Shown piece by piece: positions 4,623 to 24,836 of a stretch of 25,169 nt of DNA. The notes under the pieces are model-generated. The model saw only the letters and a list, made by a program, of their open reading frames with translations. It searched no databases and was not told the origin of the DNA. The stretch covers positions 1 to 25,169 of the IMG/VR virus record IMGVR_UViG_3300030100_000052. The stretch is one strand, 5' to 3'. The position numbers and the translations under genes are program-made. Origin of the DNA: a virus (lineage: Duplodnaviria > Caudoviricetes). The number at the start of each line of letters is the position of its first letter. The stretch's first letter is position 1.

Positions 4623-6506
4623 ATGCCATTAAATAAATTTACATTTAACCCCGGCATAAATAAGGAAATGACTGACCTTATGAGTAAAGGTGGTTGGACA
4701 GATGGTAATTTAGTTAGATTTAGAAAAGGACTACCAGAAAAAATAGGTGGATGGGCAAAGAACACTGTCAATACTTTTTTAGGCGCATGTCGCGCGTTGA
4801 TAGGTTGGGTATCTCTTGATGCAACAAAATACCTAGGTCTAGGAACAAACTTAAAATATTATGTAAAAGAAGGTAATAGTTTCAATGATGTAACCCCAAT
4901 TAGATCTACAACAGCAGCAGGAGACGTAACTTTTTCTGCAACCAATGGGTCTTCAACAGTCACGGTTGCAGACACTGCTCATGGTGCAGTAGCAAATGAT
5001 TTTGTTACTTTCTCTGGTGCTTCTTCTTTAGGCGGTAATATCAACTCAAATGTTCTCAATCAAGAATATCAGATAGCAACTATAGTCAATGCAAACTCTT
5101 ATACCATAGAAGCAAAAAATACTAGCGGGGTTACAGTTACTGCTAATGCAAGTGATAGCGGTAATGGAGGCAGTTCAGTTGTAGGTGCTTATCAGATTAA
5201 TACTGGACTTAATGTTTATTTACCATCAACAGGTTGGGGAGTCAGCACCTGGGGAGATGGCACTTGGGGATCAGCGGCAGCTGTGAGTTTTGCTAATCAA
5301 CTAAGACTGTGGTCGCATGATTCGTTTGGTGAAGACTTGGTTATTAATCCAAGAGCTGGTGGTATTTTCTTTTGGGACGAATCATCAGGAGTTAATAATA
5401 GAGCAGTTAATATAACATCATTATCTGGTGCTAATTTAGCTCCTACAGTTGGATTACAAACCATTGTTAGTGATATTGATAGGCATGTAATAGTTTTAGG
5501 TGCTGATCCAATAGTTGGTAGTGCTAGAAGTGGTTCATCTGATCCTCTATTAATAGCATTTAGCGACCAAGAAAGTGTTACAGTTTGGGAGCCAACAGCT
5601 ACAAATACAGCAGGTGATATAAGATTATCTTCAGGTTCACAGATAGTTGGCGGCCTAAGAGCAAGACAAGAAATACTTATTTGGACAGATACATCTTTAT
5701 ATTCCATGCAGTTTGTAGGTGCACCTTTTACCTTTGGTGTTAACCTCATCAACGAAAATGTAGGCATGATATCGCCAAATGGTGCTGTGAACGCACCAGA
5801 TGGCGTGTATTGGATGGCAAGAGATGGTTTCTACAAATACACTGGCTCAGTGCAAAGAGTGCCTTGTAGTGTCTTAAATTACGTTTTAGACGATTTAAAC
5901 AATACTCAGTCATTTAAAATATTTGCTTTTAGCAATAAAGAGTTTAATGAAATAGGTTGGTTTTATGCATCTAGTAGTAGTGATGACATTGATAGATATG
6001 TTAATTACAACTATCTAGAAGGAGTTTGGAGTATAGGCCAGTTGTCTAGAACAGCTTGGCTTGATGAAGGAATATTTGCAAATCCTTTAGCTACTGAAGG
6101 ATCTAGCAACAGTAGTGTTTTATATAATCATGAAAGTGGAGATGACGATGATGGTTCTCCAATGGATAATGTATTTATAGAATCTGGTGATATAGATATA
6201 GAACAAGGAGAACAATTTGGATTTGTAAGCAGAATTATTCCTGATGTTAAATTTTTTGGCGACACTCCAACAACAGGTCAAATAAATTTTGTAGTTAAAA
6301 CTAGAAACTTTCCCGGAGAAAATTTAACTACTAATTCAACTAATAATGTAACTAGTTCAACTAAACAAAACTTTATTCGTGCAAGAGGTAGGCAAATGGT
6401 ATTTCGAGTGCAATCAGATGACGATGCTGATACAGGCGTAAGACTGGGTTTTAAATGGAGATTAGGAATAAATAGATTTGATATCAAAACTGATGGTAGA
6501 AGATAG
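4623..6506 (+). CDS. Tail hub / DNA-stabilisation protein (P22 gp10 / T7 gp12-like beta-propeller) with an inserted beta-rich domain
   Basis: 627 aa with N-terminal PGI...GGW..GNLVRF, LIAFSDQE..W and ILIWTDTSLYSM propeller motifs. It sits just ahead of the internal virion genes. Confidence 0.7.
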   Translation: MPLNKFTFNPGINKEMTDLMSKGGWTDGNLVRFRKGLPEKIGGWAKNTVNTFLGACRALIGWVSLDATKYLGLGTNLKYYVKEGNSFNDVTPIRSTTAAGDVTFSATNGSSTVTVADTAHGAVANDFVTFSGASSLGGNINSNVLNQEYQIATIVNANSYTIEAKNTSGVTVTANASDSGNGGSSVVGAYQINTGLNVYLPSTGWGVSTWGDGTWGSAAAVSFANQLRLWSHDSFGEDLVINPRAGGIFFWDESSGVNNRAVNITSLSGANLAPTVGLQTIVSDIDRHVIVLGADPIVGSARSGSSDPLLIAFSDQESVTVWEPTATNTAGDIRLSSGSQIVGGLRARQEILIWTDTSLYSMQFVGAPFTFGVNLINENVGMISPNGAVNAPDGVYWMARDGFYKYTGSVQRVPCSVLNYVLDDLNNTQSFKIFAFSNKEFNEIGWFYASSSSDDIDRYVNYNYLEGVWSIGQLSRTAWLDEGIFANPLATEGSSNSSVLYNHESGDDDDGSPMDNVFIESGDIDIEQGEQFGFVSRIIPDVKFFGDTPTTGQINFVVKTRNFPGENLTTNSTNNVTSSTKQNFIRARGRQMVFRVQSDDDADTGVRLGFKWRLGINRFDIKTDGRR

Positions 6507-6846: not shown

Positions 6847-7020
6847 ATGCCTGCAAAAAGAAAAACTACAAAGAAAAAAAAGGGAGCCACACCTACTAAT
6901 CCAGCTTTATATGCTAGGGTAAAAGCTGAAGCTAAACGAAAGTTTAAGGTGTACCCAAGTGCGTACGCTAATGGCTGGTTAGTAAGAACCTATAAAAAAA
7001 GAGGTGGAGGCTATAGATAA
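6847..7020 (+). CDS. 57-aa basic protein (not in the ORF track), resembling the N-terminal half of viral DUF5872-like proteins
   Basis: SD AGGAG upstream. It translates as MPAKRKTTKKKKGATPTNPALYARVKAEAKRKFKVYPSAYANGWLVRTYKKRGGGYR and fills the gap between its neighbours. Confidence 0.8.
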   Translation: MPAKRKTTKKKKGATPTNPALYARVKAEAKRKFKVYPSAYANGWLVRTYKKRGGGYR

Positions 7021-7022
7021 AA

Positions 7023-7319
7023 GTGCAAAGAAAAAGAAAAGATCCAAAGGTTGGAACAGGCAAAAAACCTAAAGGGTCTGGTCGCAGACTTTACACAGAT
7101 GAAAACCCAAAAGACACTGTTAAAATAAAATTTGCAACACCTGCTGATGCTAGAGCTACAGTTGCTAAAGTTAAAAAAATTAAAAAACCTTTTGCAAGAA
7201 AGATACAAATCTTAACTGTAGGAGAGCAAAGAGCTAAAGTAATGGGTAAAACACAAGTAGTGTCTATATTTAAGAAAGGCAAAGATAGCATTAGAAACAT
7301 GAGAAAAAAACGTGGCTAA
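7023..7319 (+). CDS. Highly basic hypothetical protein (LYTDENPKDT motif)
   Basis: GTG start 2 nt after the upstream stop, SD GGAGG, K/R-rich 98 aa. Confidence 0.7.
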   Translation: MQRKRKDPKVGTGKKPKGSGRRLYTDENPKDTVKIKFATPADARATVAKVKKIKKPFARKIQILTVGEQRAKVMGKTQVVSIFKKGKDSIRNMRKKRG

Positions 7320-7668
7320 ACCAACTGGAGGCTTAACTGAGTGGTTTGGTAAAGGACCAAAGGGAGATTGGGTAGACATAGGTGCGCCTAAAAAGAAAGG
7401 TAAGTTTCAAGCTTGTGGTCGTAAATCTGCTAAAAAGAAAGGTAAACGTAAATACCCTAAGTGTGTGCCAAGAGCTAAAGCTAAAGCTATGACAGAATCT
7501 CAAAGGCGTAGTGCAGTTAGAAGAAAAAGAGCTGCAGGTAATCCCGGTGGTAAACCAACTAATGTTAAGACTATATTAAAAAAGAAAGATGGTGGTATAG
7601 TATCTCGTATGCATAAAGGTTGTGGTGCAGTTATGTCAGACAGAAGAAAGAGAACTAAGTTTTCATAA
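7312..7668 (+). CDS. Highly basic protein resembling the C-terminal half of DUF5872-like proteins
   Basis: Motifs GGLTEWF..., CGRKS and YPKCVP. It is K/R-rich and its start overlaps the upstream stop. Confidence 0.7.
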   Translation: MAKPTGGLTEWFGKGPKGDWVDIGAPKKKGKFQACGRKSAKKKGKRKYPKCVPRAKAKAMTESQRRSAVRRKRAAGNPGGKPTNVKTILKKKDGGIVSRMHKGCGAVMSDRRKRTKFS

Positions 7669-7696
7669 ATAAAATATTAGCTATAATGAAAAGAAA

Positions 7697-8431
7697 ATGA
7701 AAAGTTTAGAAACAGCAAACAAAGGTCTTAAAGCTTTAGCTAAAAAGAATCCTTCTTTGGTTGAAGACAAATTTGGCTATGATGTTCCAGGTTATCAATT
7801 AGGTGGCATAGCAGGAATTGATATTCAAAATATTTCAAGATATTTTAAAGATGTATTAGGAATAGATACTGAAAATGTTACTGAAGAAGATATGGCCACC
7901 GCTATTGCTAGAGCATATGGCGCACCTTCAAAAGGTATAGGTTCTTACGCTAGATCAATGGGATATCAAAATACAACTCCCGGTGCTCCAATAAGTATTG
8001 ACGCTCAAGACAAAACACCAGATGCATATAGATTCTATCCAAGTGAAGTATCTAAAATTTATGCACAAGCTAAAGGCGTACCTTTTTCTCCATTAATAGC
8101 ACCTCCAAGAGAAGCTACTTTTGTAGATGACATTCAGCCTAGACGTATAGCCAGTCAACTCTATGCTAAAGATGGAACTTATGTTGAAGCAAAAGTTGAA
8201 GACTTTCCTGAAAGAGATGAATTAATCACAGGCCCTGGTGGTGAAAGAGGCGATAAAATACCAGCCATGTTAAGTGATGGTGAGTTTGTAACTAACTCAG
8301 CAGCAGTTAGAGGTATTGGTATTGCAGCTGGAGCAGATCCTAATGACGAATACGAACAAAGATTATTAGGTGCTCGTGAAATGTACAAGATGCAAAAATT
8401 TGGAGAAGAAATAGCCAAAAAACTTGTATGA
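7697..8431 (+). CDS. Putative internal virion protein
   Basis: GPGGERGDKIPAMLSDGEFVTNSAAV matches a motif (GPG..SDSIPAMLS.GEFV) common in phage tape-measure and internal proteins. Confidence 0.6.
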   Translation: MKSLETANKGLKALAKKNPSLVEDKFGYDVPGYQLGGIAGIDIQNISRYFKDVLGIDTENVTEEDMATAIARAYGAPSKGIGSYARSMGYQNTTPGAPISIDAQDKTPDAYRFYPSEVSKIYAQAKGVPFSPLIAPPREATFVDDIQPRRIASQLYAKDGTYVEAKVEDFPERDELITGPGGERGDKIPAMLSDGEFVTNSAAVRGIGIAAGADPNDEYEQRLLGAREMYKMQKFGEEIAKKLV

Positions 8432-8901
8432 ATCTAACCTTAGAAAAGGTAGAACCTATTGCTGAAAATGGTAAACGCATAGCTGATTTTTTATCAGAAC
8501 ACTTTTGGTCAGAACATTCTTTATCAAGCGAAGGATCTCCACCCATTGAATGGAGCCGAGCATCCTCTCACATAAATCATTTCTTGTTTAACGGTATTGT
8601 GTATAATGTATTAGATGGTGATACAATCATTGGTAGTATTGCTGCAAGTCCAAATGACTATTGGTGGTCAGCAGAACAATACATAGGCGATGGTTGGTTT
8701 TATGTCATGCCAAAGTATAGAAACATAAAAGACCAAACACCACCGTCACATCTTTTAATAGATGCAGTAATAGATTATGCTAAAGAACAAGACAAGCCTT
8801 TGATTCTTGGTATTTTTAACCTAGAGGGTGTAGAAAGAGCTAAGAAACTTTTTGAAAAAAAAGGCTTTCACCAAATAGGTGGTATGTATTATAGGAAATA
8901 A
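8428..8901 (+). CDS. GNAT-fold protein (positional analogue of P22 gp14 / T7 gp13)
   Basis: WFYVMPKYRN...LLIDAVIDYAK and AKKLFEKKGF match GNAT motifs A/B. The gene precedes the ejection genes. Confidence 0.7.
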   Translation: MNLTLEKVEPIAENGKRIADFLSEHFWSEHSLSSEGSPPIEWSRASSHINHFLFNGIVYNVLDGDTIIGSIAASPNDYWWSAEQYIGDGWFYVMPKYRNIKDQTPPSHLLIDAVIDYAKEQDKPLILGIFNLEGVERAKKLFEKKGFHQIGGMYYRK

Positions 8902-8908
8902 ATAAAAG

Positions 8909-10048
8909 ATGTGTCTGAGCAGTAAAACAAAATTAGGTCCAGAAGCACAGGTCATTACTGCGCCTCAAACTGGTTATTCTTTTGTTCAACCATATGCAGA
9001 AGACTATTCACGAAGATTACTAGCCTCTTACTTTGGCGCACCCGGTGAATATGAAGGTCTCATATCTAGACCTAGAGATATTCCCATTGAGCAAACTGCT
9101 GGGCTCACCCCCCTACAAATACAGGCCCGACAGCAAGCTGGAAGACTTGGTGAGTATCAACCCTATGTAACTGAAGCTGGTCGACTCTTCGGTAGACAGG
9201 AAAGAGCTTTAGATGAAGCTTTTGGATATTTACCGGGTGCTCGTGATGCTGTAACTGGTGGCCTTGGTGCGTTACAAAGAGCAGAGCAAACAGCCATGGG
9301 GACTACAGAAATGTATGATCCTTCAATGGCTAGAATGTTTTTTGATCCATACGAAGATCAAGTTGTCCAACAAACATTAGAAGACATAGGCAGACAGTCA
9401 GCACAAGCAGATATTGGTCTAAGAGACAGAGCCATATCGCAAGGTGCTTTTGGTGGCTCTCGTGGACGTATATCGCAAGAAGAATTAGCAAGACAAACAG
9501 GACGTGGAGCAGCAGAGGCTGTATCTGGTATTAGAAGTGCTGGCTTTGGTCAAGCGCAACAACAAGCGCAACAAGCATTTGAACGACAAAGAAGTGCTCA
9601 ACAAGGACTTGCATCACTACAAGCAGGACTTGGCGGCCAACAAGCACAACTAGGTCAAGCTCTTGGTGGTCTTGGACAATTAAGCGCAGGACTTGGCGGC
9701 CAGTTTGGACAGATTGGTGGTGGGTTAGCAGGACTAGGTAGACAAACACAACAACAGCTAGGCAATCAAATTAATATGTTAAATCAACTTGGTCAACAAG
9801 GCCAAGCCACTCAGCAAGCAGCACTATCAAGACAGTTTGCTGGAGCACAACAACTTGCTCAAGAACCTTTACAAAGATTGCTCACAGGTCAACAGCTTCT
9901 AGCTGGATCTCCAATGGGAGGTATCTCTGGAGGTACTGGTACAAGCGCATATCAACGTGGTGTCTATCAGCAACCCACAGCATTAGGACAAGCAGTAGGT
10001 GCTTTTGGAACCATTGCTACTGGCATTGGAGCTCTTGGACAGAGATGA
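8909..10048 (+). CDS. Internal virion / DNA ejection protein, Gly/Gln/Ala-rich
   Basis: It has a GAFGGSRG motif, FFDPYEDQVVQQTL, LG heptad repeats and a hydrophobic Gly-rich C-terminus, and occupies the usual podovirus position. Confidence 0.7.
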   Translation: MCLSSKTKLGPEAQVITAPQTGYSFVQPYAEDYSRRLLASYFGAPGEYEGLISRPRDIPIEQTAGLTPLQIQARQQAGRLGEYQPYVTEAGRLFGRQERALDEAFGYLPGARDAVTGGLGALQRAEQTAMGTTEMYDPSMARMFFDPYEDQVVQQTLEDIGRQSAQADIGLRDRAISQGAFGGSRGRISQEELARQTGRGAAEAVSGIRSAGFGQAQQQAQQAFERQRSAQQGLASLQAGLGGQQAQLGQALGGLGQLSAGLGGQFGQIGGGLAGLGRQTQQQLGNQINMLNQLGQQGQATQQAALSRQFAGAQQLAQEPLQRLLTGQQLLAGSPMGGISGGTGTSAYQRGVYQQPTALGQAVGAFGTIATGIGALGQR

Positions 10049-11877
10049 GAGGGATAATGTCAGGCCTTGAGCCAGTAAGATTAAAAGACGGTGGCTTCCC
10101 AGATCTAACAGGCGATGGCAAAGTAACACAAGCTGACATACTTAAAGGCCGAGGGGTAGAAGGTTTTGCAGAGGGTGGAGACCCTAGGTTTATGAGCCGA
10201 GAAGGTTTCTTCAGTATGAAAGACGACCCTAAAAGACTTAACGCACGAGATATTACTGATTTTATTTTTGATCCAAGCGATCCATTAGATTATGCAGCAG
10301 CTAGTATGGCAGCTACAGGGGTTGGAATTCCAGCGGCTGTAGGCATGAAAGGTTTGAACACTGCTAGAAAAGTCAAAAAAGGCCTTGGTGCTTTAGCTGG
10401 AATGGTTCCAACTACAATGCTTGCAAGAGAAGGCATAGAATTTGCAAAAGGTCCAGTTGAATACACTAGAGGAATTTTAGATCTTGTAACATCAGCACCA
10501 GAGACAGCTGGTTCAATGGGCGAAATAGCGCAAGCATTAAAAGAAGATCCAAAAGGAACAGCTTCTATCATTTATGAAACTGTTTCTGAAACAGCTGGAT
10601 ATCCTGTTCAAAGAGCAGAAGGTGGTATTATCGGTATGGTAGATGGTGGCATACTACCAGCTAGCGCAAAAACTCCAGGCGGTAAAAAGAAAAAATCTGT
10701 TATGACTGTTATGGATATAATGGATGAGATAGCAGAAAAACTTCCTGCAAAACCTAAAGCAAAACCTAAACCTAAACCTAAACCTAAAGCTAAAGCTAAA
10801 GCTAAAGCTAGAGAAGAAGCTGAAAGACAAGCTAGGCTTGATAGAGCTAGAGCTAATAGAGAATTAGATAGACAACCAACACCTGTAAGAACAGATGCCC
10901 CTGAAGTTGGCCCACCAAAACCTGTAACAAGCCAAGGTGCTAATGTTAACAAGGCAGCAGACGATGCTTTTGATGCATCTAAAAAAACAAACATGGAAGG
11001 TAGCGTTGCTCCTTCGTTAGAAAGACCTTTTTACAAAAAGAAAAGATTTATGATACCAGCCGCTGGTGTCGCTGCTGCTAGTCTTATTCCCTTGCTTGGT
11101 AAAGATGAAAAATCTAAACCAAATTTAAGAAACATTAATCCAAAAATTTTACCTAATAATGTAGATCTTACAGACAGAAAAAATACACTTACAATTCAAG
11201 GCTCTAGCAATGTAGTTGGTCGCACTGGTAATAAAATTGATGAAAATCCAGAAACAAATCAATCTTTAATGTATTACATGAAGCAAGATTTAGCTGACAA
11301 GGGTTTTAATTTAGATGCTGATACACAAACATTTACAGGCGATAAAAAACCAACCTTCTTTGATTACGTTAAATCTTTACCTGCTGGTTACATTGACAAA
11401 GTAGCAGACGATGAAGATTATGCTAAAAAAATGATGGCAGGTTTCTTAAACATGATGAAGCCAGTAGAGGGTTATGTTCCTATTAACCCATTGGTTGCAT
11501 TTGGTGAAGGATACCTTGGCGAAGAAACAAGACAAGCTGACATGTTGCCAGCTGATGCTAAACTTTTAGAATACTTAAAAAGAAACAAAGGAGCTTTAGC
11601 TAAACTTCAATCTTTAGAGGCTACAAGAGCAGGAACAACAATTGGAGAGGGAGCTGGATCAGATGAGGTCTTTGCAGGATATCTGCTCCTTAAAGATGGT
11701 CTTAGGGAAGAGTATGGAATCGGAGAAGATGAGATAGCAAACTACGATATTTACTATGTTGATCCAAAAACAAAACAAGAAACATTTGTAAGCTCAAGAA
11801 TGTTTGGTTCTTTATTTGATAATCCTATAAAAGAAATAGCAAATCCTAATTTTATATTAAAACTTAGAGGAACTTAA
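10045..11877 (+). CDS. Internal virion / ejection protein, modular
   Basis: 610 aa with an ATGA overlap. It contains an EF-hand/dockerin-like peptide, Gly/Ala hydrophobic helices and a KP/KA repeat. Confidence 0.6.
   Translation: MRGIMSGLEPVRLKDGGFPDLTGDGKVTQADILKGRGVEGFAEGGDPRFMSREGFFSMKDDPKRLNARDITDFIFDPSDPLDYAAASMAATGVGIPAAVGMKGLNTARKVKKGLGALAGMVPTTMLAREGIEFAKGPVEYTRGILDLVTSAPETAGSMGEIAQALKEDPKGTASIIYETVSETAGYPVQRAEGGIIGMVDGGILPASAKTPGGKKKKSVMTVMDIMDEIAEKLPAKPKAKPKPKPKPKAKAKAKAREEAERQARLDRARANRELDRQPTPVRTDAPEVGPPKPVTSQGANVNKAADDAFDASKKTNMEGSVAPSLERPFYKKKRFMIPAAGVAAASLIPLLGKDEKSKPNLRNINPKILPNNVDLTDRKNTLTIQGSSNVVGRTGNKIDENPETNQSLMYYMKQDLADKGFNLDADTQTFTGDKKPTFFDYVKSLPAGYIDKVADDEDYAKKMMAGFLNMMKPVEGYVPINPLVAFGEGYLGEETRQADMLPADAKLLEYLKRNKGALAKLQSLEATRAGTTIGEGAGSDEVFAGYLLLKDGLREEYGIGEDEIANYDIYYVDPKTKQETFVSSRMFGSLFDNPIKEIANPNFILKLRGT
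10750..10809 (+). repeat. In-frame 6-nt tandem repeat, 10 units of AAA(CCT/GCT/GCA), encoding KPKAKPKPKPKPKAKAKAKA
   Basis: Read directly from the sequence. Confidence 0.9.
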
Positions 11878-11878
11878 C

Positions 11879-14800
11879 ATGCCATTCCTTACATTCGAGG
11901 ATGGTTCAAAAACCTACATTCCAGACGAAAGCCCAGAGACTATTGCTAAAGCAAAAGAAGCTTATAAATTAAGCAAGAAAGGCGATGCTAGTGTATTAGG
12001 AGATATTGGTAAACAAGCTGTAAGAGGCCTTCAAAAAATTGGAGAAGGTGCTGCTACCACTGTAACAACAGGTATAGATCTTTTTGCTGATACAGATTTA
12101 ACAGCAGACGTTAAAAGATACTATGATGAAATTGATATCGGAGAAGCAGAGACCACAGCAGGAGAAGTCACAAGATACTTAGTACAATTTGGACTACCAG
12201 GGTTTGGTGCCGCTGGAGTTCTTGCAAGAACAGGAAAAATAGGAAGACTTGGTCAAGCTCTTGGCGCAGGTGTTGTGGATGGAGCTGTAGCTACAGATGA
12301 TGTGGTCACATTAAAGGATACTTTTTTAGATACAGAATCAGAATCAGATGAAGCAAGACTAGCTAGATTAAGAGGATCTGAAGCAGCCGCTGAAAGGCTT
12401 AAAGAAAAGATGGAAGTAGCTATTGAAGGTGGTGCTTTTGTATTTGGATTACCTTTGGCTGTAAAAGCTGTGGGTAAAACTGTAGGCGCAGGTGTTGATC
12501 TTATGTCTCCTGTTGGATCTTTTATAGCAAAGCTTGGATCTTCAAAAACAAAACCCGGTGAGATACAAAAATCTGCTTTTGATGCGAACGAAAAACAAGC
12601 AAAAGGAATACTAGGAGATTTATTTAAAAAAGAAAACTTTAGATTCTACGGAGATTCTCCTGATGAATTGGTAGGCCAAGCAAAATACGCAAAACTAAAC
12701 ATGGTAAGAGCCATGCAAGATCAAGTAGATTCGTCATTTAATTCTATAGAAAATATAATGCAGCGTACTGTAGATACAGGAAGCGTTAATCAAAGCACTG
12801 CATTATCTTTATCTAGAAACATAGAAGACTTTTTGTTTCCGAGAGTAAAGATAGACTATCAACAACCAGATTTATCTAGAGGTCAAAAGATACAAAAAGC
12901 AAAAAGACTTCAAGAAGAAGCTTTAGATAATATAAAAAATCTAGAAAAAAAATATATTAATTACGATTCTATTGGACTTAATTACAACAACGGTATATCA
13001 GAAACATTAAAATCAAACAGAGAATTGTTTGACACTTATTCTAAAGAAATTTTAGACATAAGCGATGAAACCTCTACAGGTTTTATGAATCTATTTTTAC
13101 CAGATGAATTAAGAAATGCTATTACAGAAAGCGTTGGGACTTATGGCACTAGAGCTTATAAAGCATATATAGATAAAGGGTATAAAGTAGATCCAAAATT
13201 TAGAGATGATGCTATAGAAGAACTACAATCTAAGTTAGCACTGAGTAACAATGAGGCTAAAGCCACCTTTAACGAACTGTTAAATCCTGGCCCTAAGAAT
13301 AAAGTCGGTACACCATATGAAGTAAATGAAGTTTTACTTGAAGGTTTAAAGATGGACAAAGGTATTTTGAAAGGCAAAAGTTTAGATGATTTACCAGCTG
13401 TAAGAAGGGCTTTAGGAGAAACTGCAGGCTACTTGCAAGGTGACTGGCGAACTGCACTAAAGAACACTCAACTGACAGCTACAACGACAGCTAAAAGACA
13501 AGCATCTTTAGTGGGCAAGTATAGGATGTTTGACGATATTAAAAAATTAGATGAGTTATCTCCAACAACCGGAGGAGCTAAGTTTTTAAAGACAGAAGAA
13601 GAAGCTTTAAAGATGGGCAGACAGTTAGACAATAACAACATACAAATGTTTAACGATCAAGGCGAATCAATAATACTTAAAAAATTTAAAGCAGAAGATG
13701 CTGGTGCACTAGATGGAATGTATGCAACTGAAAAAACTTACAACGCTTTGCTTGGTGCAGCATCAGATATTGCAGCTGAAAGTGACGCAATAAATAAAAT
13801 ATATGCATCAATGTTAGCTGTAAAAGCTGGATCCCAATACGGTAAAACTGTTTTGTCTCCGGGTGCACAAGTAAGAAACTTTAGCAGTATTCCTTTCTTT
13901 TCATTATTAAATGGTAATGTTGGAAGCACAGGAAGATTCGCTGATGCTGTGGCTCACTCCTTCGCAGGTATTTTTGATCCAAAGAAAAGAGTTATACGCA
14001 AAGATGTAGTTCAAGAATTAACAGAAGAGGGTATGGCCCAAGGTGGTGGTGCTCAACTTGGAGAAACATTAGAGTTAGCTAAACTAGCAACTGATAATTT
14101 GGATTGGGCTAGAGGTGTAGCAAAAATATCTGACACAGCTCCTGTAAAATTTTTAGAAAAAACATACAGAATGACTGATGATACAGGTCGTGTGTTTAAT
14201 TATTTAAATGAAAAAGATAGATTCAGAAAAGCAATATCAAAAAGTTTAGATTCTAGCATACCAATTGAGTCAGCAAAAAATATAACTAGGTTTGCAGATT
14301 TAATTCAAGGATCTTCTAGAACTGGAGCAATAATAAAACCACAGGACATATTAAATAAATATGGTGAAGAAGGTTTAGAAAAATTCATAAGAAGTGAGTC
14401 AGCAGAAATAACAGCTAACACAGTACAGAACTATCAAAGGGTTGTACCAATTGTCTCTCAAGTAATTAGAAAACTCCCTCTTGGTAACTTTGTTGCGTTT
14501 CCAGCTGAGATTATAAGGAACACTAGTAATGCTTATTCAAGAGGTATTAAAGAACTTTTAAGCGACAATAAAGAAATACAAAAGATAGGTATGCGAAGAG
14601 TTGTTGGTGCTACAACCACAACTGCCGCTTTGCCAAGTTCCCTTCTTGCTTTAGGTATGACACTTACTGGAGTCAACAAAGATTCAGTTAATGCTTACAA
14701 AAGATCTTTTGCAGCACCATGGGATAGAACAGCCACATTAGTTCCTATTGCGTCTGATAAGGATGGCAACCCAACCCAGTTCTTTAACTTTAGTTATATG

Positions 14801-15790
14801 AATCCATATGATTATTTACGAAGACCTGGAGTAAGAATACTTCAAGAAATAGAAAACGGTAACAGAGATGAAGAGAGTTTATTAAAAGTTGCCTCAGATG
14901 CTTTTGGTGGATCTCTTACAGAAATGTTCCAAAGTTTTGCTGAACCTGCTTTTTCTGCCCAAGCTGTATTGGAAGCTACCAATGGAGAAACTTCTACAGG
15001 TAGAAAAATATTTGGACCTTCAGATTCTTTTGGAGATAAAAACGCAAAAAGATTTTTTCATGTAGTTGATACTTTACTGCCAAGTATCACACCTTTTAAT
15101 TTACAATTTGATAGAACATCTAAACTGCCACTTGGAATAGGAGTTGAAACATTAAAAGCAAAAGGATTTCCTAGAGCTGTAATAGGAAGCACAGGTGGTA
15201 AAGGAGAAGATAAAAAAATATTAAACAAAAGCGGTAAAGAAATAGATGTAGCAGAAACTTTTGTGCAAGCTTTCAGTGGTATTAAAGTAATAAAGCCACA
15301 GATTGATTTAACTTTAAGATACAGAGGATTTGAAGCTAACGATGCTATTAGAGATTCAACCAATGAATTTAATAGAATATTAAGATCTCCTGATGCTCAG
15401 TCATCTGAGCAACTTTTACAAGGTTTCATCAATCAAAATGAAGCTAGGTTTAATGTGTTAAGAGATTTATATACAACCATTGATGATGCAAGAGCCTTGG
15501 GATTATCTGATAGAGATATTGAAAAACAATTAAAAGAGGCCAAGGTTGCTAACTATAAAGAAGTTATGAGAGGCAAGTTTAGACCAATAGAGCCAAGCTT
15601 TGACATGATTCAAGCATCTAGAGCTGGTGCATTTGGAAGTCCTCAACCAATAGATCCTAGCACCATTAGAGCAGCGCAGACTGAATTGCAACAAGATCTA
15701 ACTGGAAGATACATAACACCAGATGCAAGACAAAGAGCTATAGAAATTTTAAGAGAAGAAGAAAGAAAGAAACTAGTAGGCACACCCTAG
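11879..15790 (+). CDS. Large internal virion / ejection protein (T7 gp16 / P22 gp16-like position)
   Basis: 1303 aa, apparently helical, with Gly/Ala hydrophobic N-terminal segments. It is the last gene of the structural operon. Confidence 0.65.
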   Translation: MPFLTFEDGSKTYIPDESPETIAKAKEAYKLSKKGDASVLGDIGKQAVRGLQKIGEGAATTVTTGIDLFADTDLTADVKRYYDEIDIGEAETTAGEVTRYLVQFGLPGFGAAGVLARTGKIGRLGQALGAGVVDGAVATDDVVTLKDTFLDTESESDEARLARLRGSEAAAERLKEKMEVAIEGGAFVFGLPLAVKAVGKTVGAGVDLMSPVGSFIAKLGSSKTKPGEIQKSAFDANEKQAKGILGDLFKKENFRFYGDSPDELVGQAKYAKLNMVRAMQDQVDSSFNSIENIMQRTVDTGSVNQSTALSLSRNIEDFLFPRVKIDYQQPDLSRGQKIQKAKRLQEEALDNIKNLEKKYINYDSIGLNYNNGISETLKSNRELFDTYSKEILDISDETSTGFMNLFLPDELRNAITESVGTYGTRAYKAYIDKGYKVDPKFRDDAIEELQSKLALSNNEAKATFNELLNPGPKNKVGTPYEVNEVLLEGLKMDKGILKGKSLDDLPAVRRALGETAGYLQGDWRTALKNTQLTATTTAKRQASLVGKYRMFDDIKKLDELSPTTGGAKFLKTEEEALKMGRQLDNNNIQMFNDQGESIILKKFKAEDAGALDGMYATEKTYNALLGAASDIAAESDAINKIYASMLAVKAGSQYGKTVLSPGAQVRNFSSIPFFSLLNGNVGSTGRFADAVAHSFAGIFDPKKRVIRKDVVQELTEEGMAQGGGAQLGETLELAKLATDNLDWARGVAKISDTAPVKFLEKTYRMTDDTGRVFNYLNEKDRFRKAISKSLDSSIPIESAKNITRFADLIQGSSRTGAIIKPQDILNKYGEEGLEKFIRSESAEITANTVQNYQRVVPIVSQVIRKLPLGNFVAFPAEIIRNTSNAYSRGIKELLSDNKEIQKIGMRRVVGATTTTAALPSSLLALGMTLTGVNKDSVNAYKRSFAAPWDRTATLVPIASDKDGNPTQFFNFSYMNPYDYLRRPGVRILQEIENGNRDEESLLKVASDAFGGSLTEMFQSFAEPAFSAQAVLEATNGETSTGRKIFGPSDSFGDKNAKRFFHVVDTLLPSITPFNLQFDRTSKLPLGIGVETLKAKGFPRAVIGSTGGKGEDKKILNKSGKEIDVAETFVQAFSGIKVIKPQIDLTLRYRGFEANDAIRDSTNEFNRILRSPDAQSSEQLLQGFINQNEARFNVLRDLYTTIDDARALGLSDRDIEKQLKEAKVANYKEVMRGKFRPIEPSFDMIQASRAGAFGSPQPIDPSTIRAAQTELQQDLTGRYITPDARQRAIEILREEERKKLVGTP

Positions 15791-21997: not shown

Positions 21998-24001
21998 GTG
22001 GCTATTGACCTGAACCTCAATATTAAGGGGGAAGAAATCATGAACGACTCTCGCAGAGAGATGTTGATTTCTTTTTACGAGAATCATTTTCATCTCATAC
22101 CCTGTGGCTCTAGGTCAGACACAATACCAGATTACTTTAAACGTAAACATCAATACGAAGAAGACGATACACTGATTAAGAAATGGTCAAAGACACCAAG
22201 AGTCAAATGGTCTAACTACATAGAAAAACAACCCACATTAAAAGAAATCAAACAATGGTATCTACAGTTCCCAACTTGTAATTGGGCAGCTATCACAGGC
22301 ATAAACTTTGTGGTGCTTGATGCAGATACACAAGAGGCCTGTGAGTTTGTAGAGTCAGGGCAGATAACAAGAACCACCATGAAACAAAAGACACCTCGTG
22401 GTGGTTATCATTACTTCTACGCTATCAATCCAAACCTCAAAGTAAGAAACACCACAGGCAGACTAGACATCAGAGGAGAAGGTGGCTATGTCATGATATC
22501 GCCTTCTAACCAATACATGTTTGAAACTGTGGACAGCATGACCATAGATGACATGGACGAACTCCCTTGTCTTACTAGTAAAGACATGAAGGTAATCTAT
22601 GACTTCAACGATACAGGCAAGACTGGAACGCAAAACAATACTTTGCTTACGATAGATGGTGTTGATACTGGTATGCGTAACGATACCTTGGCAAGACTTG
22701 TTGGCAAATGGATTGCTGAAGGATGGGGCAGACGCGAAGTTATTATTAAATCACTTGATTGGAATCAAACCAACAACCCACCTATGAGTGTGCAAGAAGT
22801 ATTACAGACAGTAAATAGCATATGTGCAGGACATCTAAGAAGAAACCCAGATGAAAGCGTAGGTATCTTGGAATGGAATACAAGTCAGTGGCAGATACAA
22901 CTGACAGATGAACTCAAAGAGATCATGGATCAAGAAGATCCCATCGAACAGCAAAAGAATGAAGACAAACCAGACAGAGACCCACTTGGACTCAAGACAT
23001 TTGCAGATCCCTTTTGGGATGGCATGGACTCATCACGCATCGAACAGTTTTGGGGTGATGCATTTGTCTTTCAACAATCAAGAGTTTTGCTTTTAGGTAA
23101 ACCCAAGATAGGTAAATCGCACTGGCTAGGTGCATTCGCAGCAGCGGCCACCACAGGCACGGAGTTTATGAATCAACAGTTTAGTAGGCCACTTAAGGTT
23201 ATGTGGCTACAGGCGGAGATTATTCATGAGTTCTTAAAGAAAAGAATTGATATGTATTATCAGCCATTCGTTCATGACAAAGAGATGTTAGAAATAGGCA
23301 AGTCCAATCTGATTGCATCAGGTAGGCTACGCAAGAACCTCATGCGAGACAAAGACATAGATGAGATAGCAACAAGTATTGATTATCACAAACCAGACAT
23401 AGTAATGATTGACCCTATCATTAACTTCTTTGATGGTGAAGAGAACTCTAACTCAGAGATACATGCAATGCTCTCGAGGGTAGACAGACTCATAGAACTC
23501 TTTGGCGTAGCTTTTATTATCGCTCATCACACTGGTAAAGAAAGAGCAGATGACTTGTCGTTCATGTCAGCGCGTGGTGGTAGTGCCTTTGCTGGTTGGA
23601 TGGATTCAGGTGTCAAGCTGTCAGGTAAGAAACCCAACATCAATGTATTCTATGAGGCAAGGAATGCTAAAGAACCGGAACAACATCTCGCTTATTTTGA
23701 TTACGACAGAGGATTCTTTAGGGTGGTGGATGCACAAGATTCTCCAGACGAGGTGGAGATAGCAAGAGTTGTGGCATCAGCGATGGATAAGCACAAGTTT
23801 TACACACGACAGGATCTCGAACTTCTTGCTCGTAAAGCCTTGAAAGAAGCTGACCTAGCATCAGGAGAGAGAGCTGCAAGATACGCAGTCTCACATGTGC
23901 AAAAGTATTTAGGAGATAGAGTGAAGAATCACAATGTCCCAGGTAAGAACACTTGGTATTACTTAGAGGGTAATGAAATGAAGAGACCTTGGGATGAATA
24001 A
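21998..24001 (+). CDS. Bifunctional primase-polymerase (Prim-Pol) + PriCT + AAA_25/RepA-type helicase
   Basis: NWAAITG..FVVLDAD, KTPRGGYHYFY, LDIRGEGGYVM, GMRNDTLARLVG, Walker A GKPKIGKS, IVMIDP, IIAHHTGK and ARGGSA. Confidence 0.9.
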   Translation: MAIDLNLNIKGEEIMNDSRREMLISFYENHFHLIPCGSRSDTIPDYFKRKHQYEEDDTLIKKWSKTPRVKWSNYIEKQPTLKEIKQWYLQFPTCNWAAITGINFVVLDADTQEACEFVESGQITRTTMKQKTPRGGYHYFYAINPNLKVRNTTGRLDIRGEGGYVMISPSNQYMFETVDSMTIDDMDELPCLTSKDMKVIYDFNDTGKTGTQNNTLLTIDGVDTGMRNDTLARLVGKWIAEGWGRREVIIKSLDWNQTNNPPMSVQEVLQTVNSICAGHLRRNPDESVGILEWNTSQWQIQLTDELKEIMDQEDPIEQQKNEDKPDRDPLGLKTFADPFWDGMDSSRIEQFWGDAFVFQQSRVLLLGKPKIGKSHWLGAFAAAATTGTEFMNQQFSRPLKVMWLQAEIIHEFLKKRIDMYYQPFVHDKEMLEIGKSNLIASGRLRKNLMRDKDIDEIATSIDYHKPDIVMIDPIINFFDGEENSNSEIHAMLSRVDRLIELFGVAFIIAHHTGKERADDLSFMSARGGSAFAGWMDSGVKLSGKKPNINVFYEARNAKEPEQHLAYFDYDRGFFRVVDAQDSPDEVEIARVVASAMDKHKFYTRQDLELLARKALKEADLASGERAARYAVSHVQKYLGDRVKNHNVPGKNTWYYLEGNEMKRPWDE

Positions 24002-24836
24002 TCCTTACAAGATAGAGGGGCCAGCTCTGATTAGTTTCAGTGGTGGTAGAACATCAGGCTTCATGTTGTGGAATATTATCCAAGCATATGGTGGCACACT
24101 GCCTAAAGATATATATGTTACCTTTGCTAACACAGGCAAGGAAGCCCCAGAGACACTCGACTTTGTGCATGAGATAGGACAGAAGTGGGGCGTAAAAATA
24201 CATTGGCTAGAGTTGTATTTCGGTGAAGAGCGTCCAGTCTATCGCACTAAAGAAGTCACCTATGAAACAGCAAGCAGAAATGGCGAGCCCTTTGAGGCTT
24301 TGATTGATAGAAGACAATACTTACCCAACCCTGTGGCCAGATTCTGCACCACTGAGTTAAAAGTTAAAGTTATGTCAAGGTTTATGCGCAAACTAAAAGA
24401 ACATAAAAATTGGTATAACGTGATAGGTCTTAGATACGATGAACCTCGAAGAGTTTCAAGTGCCATGAACCAAAAGAATGCATGGACAAATGTTTTGCCT
24501 ATGTATCACGCAAAACATACAGTCAAAGATGTGACAGATTTTTGGGAGCAGCAAAATTTTGATTTGAATCTAACAAACTTTGGCGGTAAAACTTTGGCTG
24601 GCAACTGTGACCTCTGCTTTCTTAAAGGCAAGGACACAAAGGTTAAGCTACTGCAAGAAAGACCAGGCATGGCAGATTGGTGGATCAAACAAGAACAAAA
24701 GTTTGGAGTCAATGCTACAGCTACATTTAGAAAAGACAGCGATAACTACATTAAACTTTTAGAAATAAGTAAACAACCAGAATACAAGGAGCAAGATCTG
24801 TTTGATGAACAGATGACATGTTTTTGCCATGATTAA
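23994..24836 (+). CDS. PAPS-reductase-family (PP-loop) protein
   Basis: ISFSGGRTS, FANTGKE, RFCTTELK, IGLRYDEPRR, GNCDLCFLK and a terminal CFCHD. Confidence 0.85.
   Translation: MNNPYKIEGPALISFSGGRTSGFMLWNIIQAYGGTLPKDIYVTFANTGKEAPETLDFVHEIGQKWGVKIHWLELYFGEERPVYRTKEVTYETASRNGEPFEALIDRRQYLPNPVARFCTTELKVKVMSRFMRKLKEHKNWYNVIGLRYDEPRRVSSAMNQKNAWTNVLPMYHAKHTVKDVTDFWEQQNFDLNLTNFGGKTLAGNCDLCFLKGKDTKVKLLQERPGMADWWIKQEQKFGVNATATFRKDSDNYIKLLEISKQPEYKEQDLFDEQMTCFCHD

Follow-up and report, generated by a model that had tools for sequence, protein, structure and literature searches.

A Φ-x-x-G-G motif on putative cargo proteins of marine short-tailed phages and its co-occurrence with a conserved C-terminal module

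The adenovirus protease cuts (M/I/L)xGG-X, and pS273R of African swine fever virus (ASFV) cuts GG-X in core polyproteins. Among tailed phages, T4 and phiKZ are known to load and cut head cargo under the direction of other motifs: the T4 capsid targeting sequence with gp21 and the phiKZ S/A-X-E sites are short peptides on unrelated internal proteins that direct loading, processing or both (PMC9026906). Further systems for comparison are the crassvirus cargo protein C1 (crAss001 gp45; PF25725; PDB 7QOG chain M), the C-terminal region of tape-measure proteins (lambda gpH; PDB 8ZDO gp16; PDB 8RK3) and the P22 proteins gp7, gp20 and gp16. Here we describe a short motif, Φ-x-x-G-G (Φ being F, Y, M or L at position −3, three residues before GG), on late proteins encoded by a viral record of 25,169 bases that is about 45% complete (IMGVR_UViG_3300030100_000052; the whole stretch is called the window), together with a conserved module at the C-terminus of one of these proteins, p244. 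As the 627-amino-acid (aa) tail protein of the window is closest to those of DSL-LC04, CRP-901/902, HTVC027P, MinM2 and HTVC023P, the record most likely comes from a short-tailed phage of marine origin within this broader group.

A sequence-only reading of the window had listed seven sites with a (D/E)-G-G consensus in three late open reading frames (ORFs), and all seven translate as given. K118 (7312..7668, +), a small Lys-rich protein, carries KKDGGIV (7582..7602, +), degenerate at −3, about 25 aa before its C-terminus. In p244 (7697..8431, +) the sites are YQLGG (7793..7807, +), found as Y/F-x-x-GG in most aligned homologues and gapped in 10 of 35, and the degenerate YAKDG(T) (8162..8176, +), the Gly of which is invariant in a 31-sequence alignment. 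Four copies lie within the first 202 residues of p610 (10045..11877, +), a putative ejection protein by position: LKDGG and FAEGG around a 28-aa cassette (10081..10179, +) that is cleanly missing from some homologues, and the tandem doublet RAEGGIIGMVDGG at residues 190-202 (10612..10650, +), with 8-residue spacing, which forms a conserved island amid divergent flanks. From the window alone the signal is thin. The pattern [DE]GG occurs five times in K118, p244 and p610 against 1.29 expected (p=0.008, for three proteins chosen post hoc), nine times in all 18 late ORFs (5.28 expected, p=0.088) and once in 11 early ORFs (1.25 expected). Plain GG is not enriched (10 against 10.1), and a stricter pattern over all 31 called ORFs gave 2 against 0.5, with a shuffle maximum of 3.

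The reality of the motif is settled by the homologues, whose counts are numbers of related sequences and not of independent events. In 25 p244 homologues, Y and F are enriched 4.6- and 4.9-fold at −3. The acidic residue at −1 is not conserved ([DE]GG 69 against 60.3 and 18 against 17.9 in p244 orthologues of two other clades), and the (D/E)GG consensus was replaced by Φ-x-x-G-G. Since the M2 pattern had been picked by eye after several genomes were viewed, the sole held-out test is the count of [FY]xxGG, for which the pattern was fixed on the p244 homologues only and then counted in other families against 300 shuffles. It was well above chance in four of six held-out cargo families, each exceeding the maximum of the shuffles, namely DSL-type p244 (66 against 26.5 expected) and the HTVC023P proteins gp79 (36 against 9.4), gp82 (22 against 1.7) and gp83 (25 against 10.0). 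The −3 peak of gp83 was gone once only distinct site contexts were counted (7 against 9.5).

The motif is confined to some of the late proteins. Neither replication proteins (3 against 4.2) nor the tail nozzle (3 against 27.7 in 57 homologues) are enriched in it, and p1303, a large putative ejection protein (11879..15790, +), is flat (7 against 5.5 and 7 against 4.9). For p379 (8909..10048, +), a Gly/Gln-rich putative ejection protein that is gp7-like by position, counts were 0 against 2.6 and 4 against 15.5 in two clades and 7 against 2.3 (maximum 8) in a third; the p379 of the window has no copy although 16% of it is Gly. What stands of the earlier proposal of a short motif shared by otherwise unrelated late proteins is a selected motif on putative virion cargo, not the consensus as first written. 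The motif is also present on proteins beside the terminase and portal genes in G001 (a close relative, 98% complete), G002, G003 and DSL-LC04, besides small Lys-rich proteins near the capsid gene. Copies are found inside the proteins or close to the C-terminus, with Gly as the last residue. T, D or S may stand in for the second Gly, the G-T, G-D and G-S variants being common, and GG is followed by I, V or L at 182 of 360 sites and by S or T at 19. A spacing of 8 residues is the commonest among close pairs (19/56). Of 15 offsets around GG compared in non-cargo proteins, −3 has the fewest F/Y (41 against 71, a comparison with no matched control).

Within p610, the doublet residues G193, I195 and G201 are invariant in 14 of 14 aligned sequences, and the Gly identity of 1.00 and 0.94 compares with a flank mean of 0.42 in 17 homologues. 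All three clean p610 indels have both ends at motifs, where 0.4 were expected; the idea that indels in homologues map to the motif is supported at these cassette boundaries. Recombination between short repeats could add to the indel pattern. The removable cassette is formed by a D-x-T-G-D-G-K-V loop between two motifs (p610 residues 18-33, window 10096-10143), which we take to resemble a dockerin/EF-hand calcium loop. The p610 orthologue of G001 (L087:3099-5047) is split into ORFs of 349 and 298 aa; that of G002 is a single ORF of 639 aa. The K118 orthologues of G001 and G002 have MKNGG at the same position, followed by a shared RGxG element. This second C-terminal element, R/K-G-x-G and then basic residues a few positions past the motif, belongs to the small Lys-rich proteins (window 7603-7665; orthologues in L085, L086 and L089). 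G001, G002 and G003 each encode a protein of 74-87 aa built of 6-7 tandem 12-residue Lys-rich units ending in Y/M-A-K-G-G (L086:2714-2938 in G001, L089:17745-18008 on the minus strand in G002, and L092 in G003). Comparable Met/Lys/Gly-rich multi-motif proteins occur in L113 and in DSL-LC04 (L094).

The sequence-only reading had overlooked a module of about 55 aa at the C-terminus of p244, directly behind the degenerate YAKDG. Known from 80 related loci, p244 combines a variable, motif-punctuated N-terminal part with the conserved stretch GPG...D.IPA.LS.GE.V..A.AV plus helices (8204..8428, +), and its homologues are 244-605 aa long with 0-6 [FY]-type motif copies. The module matches no Pfam family; tape-measure PHROG entries match p244 at residues 169-210. 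A profile of 31 module sequences retrieved 27,375 representatives at E≤0.001 among 1.84 billion, and the matches examined are the best 150 of these, 45 giant and 105 podophage-type proteins. The motif stands just upstream of the module in 86 of the 105 podophage-type proteins.

In every phage tested, motif and module go together. The window, G001-G003, DSL-LC04, HTVC023P and MinM2 have the module, and each of them also carries copies of the motif. Searches for the module were negative in CRP-901 (first 50 of 53 kb), phiM5, Octadecabacter DB2, PaP4 (26 of 44 kb) and 15 of 15 CHUG loci, seven of which span the expected gene position; these module-less controls show no motif enrichment (CHUG loci 3 against 4.8 expected). 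Both elements are thus at background or absent in CHUG-type and LUZ24-type controls. The only late genes of G001 common to DSL-LC04, HTVC023P and MinM2 yet absent from CRP-901 and the CHUG loci are p244, which in MinM2 was recovered by profile, and the gene of a small basic DUF6321 protein. In the CRP-901/CHUG comparison the terminase of G001 is also blank, but it lies outside the stretches searched. AlphaFold2 models of the module (31 and 126 sequences) reached a predicted local distance difference test (pLDDT) score of about 50 in the beta part and placed the motif in a low-confidence hairpin. With this model, Foldseek returned no match at E≤0.001 and VIA-align a best Z of 3.5 over 48,161 chains. 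A C1-like, a ribbon-helix-helix or, by a presumed resemblance, a Hint-like fold is neither confirmed nor contradicted by these results. Complex prediction for the module with the p610 doublet peptide gave a score of 0.00, 'no answer'.

In tape-measure proteins the same module is flanked by the motif at fixed distances. The module matches the tape-measure chains 8zdo_S (E 1.9e-14) and 8rk3_A (E 9.2e-6), and 7 of 11 giant module proteins scanned match a tape-measure family of Pfam; in several of them transglycosylase, M23 or NlpC domains occur too. In the 45 giant proteins, GG lies exactly 14 residues upstream in 138 of 181 module copies and a downstream motif is present in 151 of 181, compared with 8.6% of random windows; 319 of 498 motifs fall within the 12% of length around modules. 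The module is repeated up to 8 times in one chain. Four proteins of 5,700-7,900 aa (P0252, P0283, P0340 and P0353) have up to 11 stretches matched to it. In lambda gpH, inspection of the sequence places FATGG at 733 and YATGG at 778 around the GE.V module. Cleavage of gpH takes place close to its Gly-rich C-terminus, and PMC12617516 states that neither the site nor the catalyst of this cut is known. The resemblance has limits: tape-measure proteins occupy the tail lumen and not the head, and they carry motif and module in one chain, whereas each podophage genome has a single module and the motif is spread over several genes. The p244 protein itself departs from the tape-measure layout, with FPERDEL in the upstream slot, the degenerate motif further up and helices downstream, a podophage variant.

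The crassvirus cargo protein C1 is likewise punctuated by the motif, which is what C1 and podophage cargo share for certain. At least six copies are present in crAss001 gp45, and 18 C1 homologues have 49 against 10.8 expected. Different parts of gp45 are seen in head and tail, the resolved segments being 214-245 and 425-552, of which the latter is compact and bound to the portal wing (PMC10172136). Both segments fall between motif copies. The portal-bound segment begins at A425-F-G-G, so that one copy is inside the modelled segment, and it holds a G...GE.V pattern. Across 22 length classes, natural gp45 deletions of 110, 69 and 35 aa start or stop at motif copies, unlike those of 21 and 46 aa and some of the short ones. 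In the main text of PMC10172136, 'motif' appears once, whereas 'cleav', 'protease' and 'peptidase' do not appear. C1 differs from p244 in having its domain internally in a protein of 842 aa, where the module of p244 is C-terminal, and the homology of the two modules is without statistical support: the nearest named Atlas cluster, crAss_CARG1, scored 0.84, below the bar of 0.9; hhalign of the p244 module with C1 gave probabilities of 0.2-1.3%, with the GE.V cores always in one register; and PF25725 was found in none of five genomes.

The analogy with adenovirus and ASFV, drawn from di-glycine and an upstream hydrophobic residue in core proteins, is not supported. The hydrophobic peak of the phage motif is at −3 and not −2, one position further from GG, and the second Gly is replaceable. 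Peptidase_C5, C48, JAB and S78 (PF04586) all stayed below cut-off in five of five genomes (one 98% complete, two complete isolates), from which a very divergent enzyme could have escaped; the single JAB match, at 11.8 bits (cut-off 25), lies inside the primase. The sequence-only reading had likewise noted no visible protease in the window. When 28 ORFs of the window and 53 of the 96 of G001 were scanned against Pfam and PHROG, the S74 chaperone domain was the sole plausible protein-cutting family, and no HExxH, JAB-like or GDSG pattern was seen in the G001 ORFs. The peptidases named by depositors, M15A and a 150-aa 'ATP-dependent protease' in DSL-LC04 and M15 in HTVC023P, fall outside these tests. 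Two candidates were rejected. The S74 domain at the C-terminus of the G001 p379 orthologue (L087:1837-3099) belongs to a self-cleaving chaperone family and is missing from the p379 of the window. A 226-aa His/Cys/Trp-rich late protein, phrog_3704 (G001 L086:2972-3652), is shared with HTVC023P and was considered as a protease. It had no usable Atlas match and was absent from DSL-LC04 and from MinM2 (50 of 65 kb covered), which led to its rejection as the general reader.

As in T4 and phiKZ, a peptide is common here to unrelated late proteins and not enriched in replication proteins. The T4 and phiKZ peptides are propeptides at the N-terminus, which a dedicated prohead protease cuts after Glu; the present motif is internal or C-terminal, Gly-based and repeated, the prohead protease family PF04586 was detected in none of the five genomes, and S74 was the one protease name to come up in the 53 G001 ORFs scanned. 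As for P22, the gene order of nozzle, GNAT protein and three Gly-rich or helical proteins resembles the gp7/gp20/gp16 arrangement, and there is one phrog match named 'DNA ejection protein'. The p244 gene is an extra one, absent from the related CHUG phages, and no shared tag is mentioned for P22-type ejection proteins in the available text of PMC8954989.

The docking-tag alternative of the sequence-only reading appears to fit these observations better than the adenovirus/ASFV analogy. We consider it plausible, if somewhat short of probable, that Φ-x-x-G-G is an address or docking tag bound by the p244 module, through which cargo would be loaded via portal-anchored p244. The module would sit at the portal as C1 does in crassviruses and would bind the motif in cis in tape-measure proteins and in trans in podophages, the motif peptide completing its beta part as it appears to in cis. 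In this way p244, as candidate cargo anchor and motif reader, may bring ejection proteins that bear the tag, together with small basic proteins, into the prohead, and tandem copies may add avidity. Recognition of the motif by the module is the simplest account because the two co-occur across genomes, are linked at fixed distance in tape-measure proteins, and none of the protease families sought reached its cut-off in five genomes. Docking and cleavage are not exclusive readings, since the T4 targeting sequence does both jobs.

Several results weigh against docking by the p244 module. Two p610 families failed the held-out pattern (11 against 6.3, maximum 14; 9 against 7.2) and use L, M, R or K at −3. 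The p379 proteins and the p1303 proteins of clades A and B are without the motif, yet must be packaged too if they are ejection proteins. In p244, only one of four clean indels is at a motif, and copy number does not follow length (rho 0.11, p 0.44, n=54). As tape-measure proteins sit in tails, docking at the portal cannot be what the module does in general, and its homology to crassvirus C1 is a lead only on the scores given above. No virion proteome of these podophages was found in the literature.

Less likely, though deserving serious attention, is that the motif is a maturation cleavage site, with cargo and tape-measure polyproteins cut at or near Φ-x-x-G-G by the module or by an unrecognised phage or host protease. 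The processing of gpH (PMC12617516) near the region with FATGG at 733 and YATGG at 778 is in line with this, as are the presence of gp45 parts in both head and tail with resolved segments between motif copies, the gain or loss of cassettes at motifs (p610, and the gp45 deletions of 110, 69 and 35 aa), the depletion of F/Y at −3 in non-cargo proteins, as avoidance of cut sites would give, and the redundant sites known in phiKZ propeptides (PMC9026906). That depletion has no matched control, however, and a cut at FATGG predicts products of about 80 and 12 kDa compared with about 78 and 14 kDa in published estimates. In C1, the segment that was modelled extends across AFGG, other gp45 deletions start elsewhere, and the acidic residues of the module differ among its podophage, lambda and crAss versions. 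Self-cleavage by N-O acyl shift is unlikely because the residue after GG is mostly I, V or L, and the replaceable second Gly and the negative protease searches also speak against cutting.

We think it unlikely that the motif acts without a reader, its aromatic-Gly turns sticking to each other or to DNA and so condensing flexible cargo into a core, with the module as a folded context for the same turn. The Lys-rich pure-repeat proteins, the predominance of 8-residue spacing, the freely varying copy number and the low-confidence hairpin of the AlphaFold2 model would all suit such a role; the copies that stand singly at set positions in small proteins and at the N-terminus of p610, the co-occurrence of motif and module across genomes and the fixed 14-residue spacing in tape-measure proteins would not. 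That the motif is a chance product of Gly-rich sequence or a functionless relic of small DNA duplications is very improbable: the window-only statistics are weak and short repeats favour recombination, which could alone explain indels ending at motifs, but chance is largely refuted by the homologue counts with held-out enrichment in four families, by the lack of the motif in the most Gly-rich protein, p379, by conserved Gly amid divergent flanks and by the different codons at the sites of the window.

A more far-reaching and speculative proposal is that the GPG/GE.V module is an undescribed motif-reading mini-domain, possibly the protease itself, which podophage cargo would share with crassvirus C1 and with thousands of tape-measure proteins. 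It would read Φ-x-x-G-G in cis or in trans, load and cut ejected proteins, and be the missing catalyst of gpH cleavage.

In G001, terminase, portal, GroES, major capsid, adaptors and nozzle are followed by the orthologues of p244, GNAT, p379, p610 and p1303; the window contains no portal gene. On this gene order and on two PHROG matches of G001 orthologues (p379 to phrog_4287 'DNA ejection protein', p1303 to the virion structural protein phrog_22602), the p244-, p379-, p610- and p1303-type proteins are putative ejected cargo. The 627-aa tail nozzle or 'stabilization' protein of the window (4623..6506, +) matches phrog_3287 (E 3.7e-67) and is P22 gp10-like by the names depositors gave its homologues. 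Two small Lys-rich ORFs of 57 and 98 aa (6847..7319, +) precede K118; in relatives this cluster sits behind the major capsid gene and several of its members bear the motif. The context gene between p244 and p379 encodes a GNAT-fold protein (8428..8901, +; PF00583 above cut-off, phrog_1249). Elsewhere in the window, a 746-aa protein (366-2606) with a signal-like N-terminus, a Cys-rich stretch and a very acidic middle has no Pfam or PHROG match, and a PAPS-reductase-family gene (23994-24836) lies beside the primase-helicase. G001 has CsgF, CsgG, FecR, CHASE2 and adenylate/guanylate cyclase genes clustered within its tail region (L086:11202-16021), the cyclase domain being a separate ORF there and fused in G002 and G003.

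Peptide-directed loading or processing of head cargo is of a known kind; this Gly-Gly motif with its module across marine podophages, crassviruses and tape-measure proteins appears new. No description of the motif was found in the open literature, most subscription papers being outside its coverage, nor in the available text of PMC5512222 (no occurrence of 'GG motif' or 'glycine'), PMC1796659, PMC11445458 and PMC4351075. The two candidate sites in gpH, the cleavage of which is described with neither site nor catalyst, and the six or more in gp45, which has parts on either side of the portal, are accessible to mass spectrometry. If the tag works, it could also serve to bring proteins of choice into phage heads. 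Little is understood of how short-tailed phages choose the proteins that they carry and eject, and a portable five-residue tag with a candidate reader is directly testable in cultured HTVC023P, DSL-LC04, MinM2 and crAss001.

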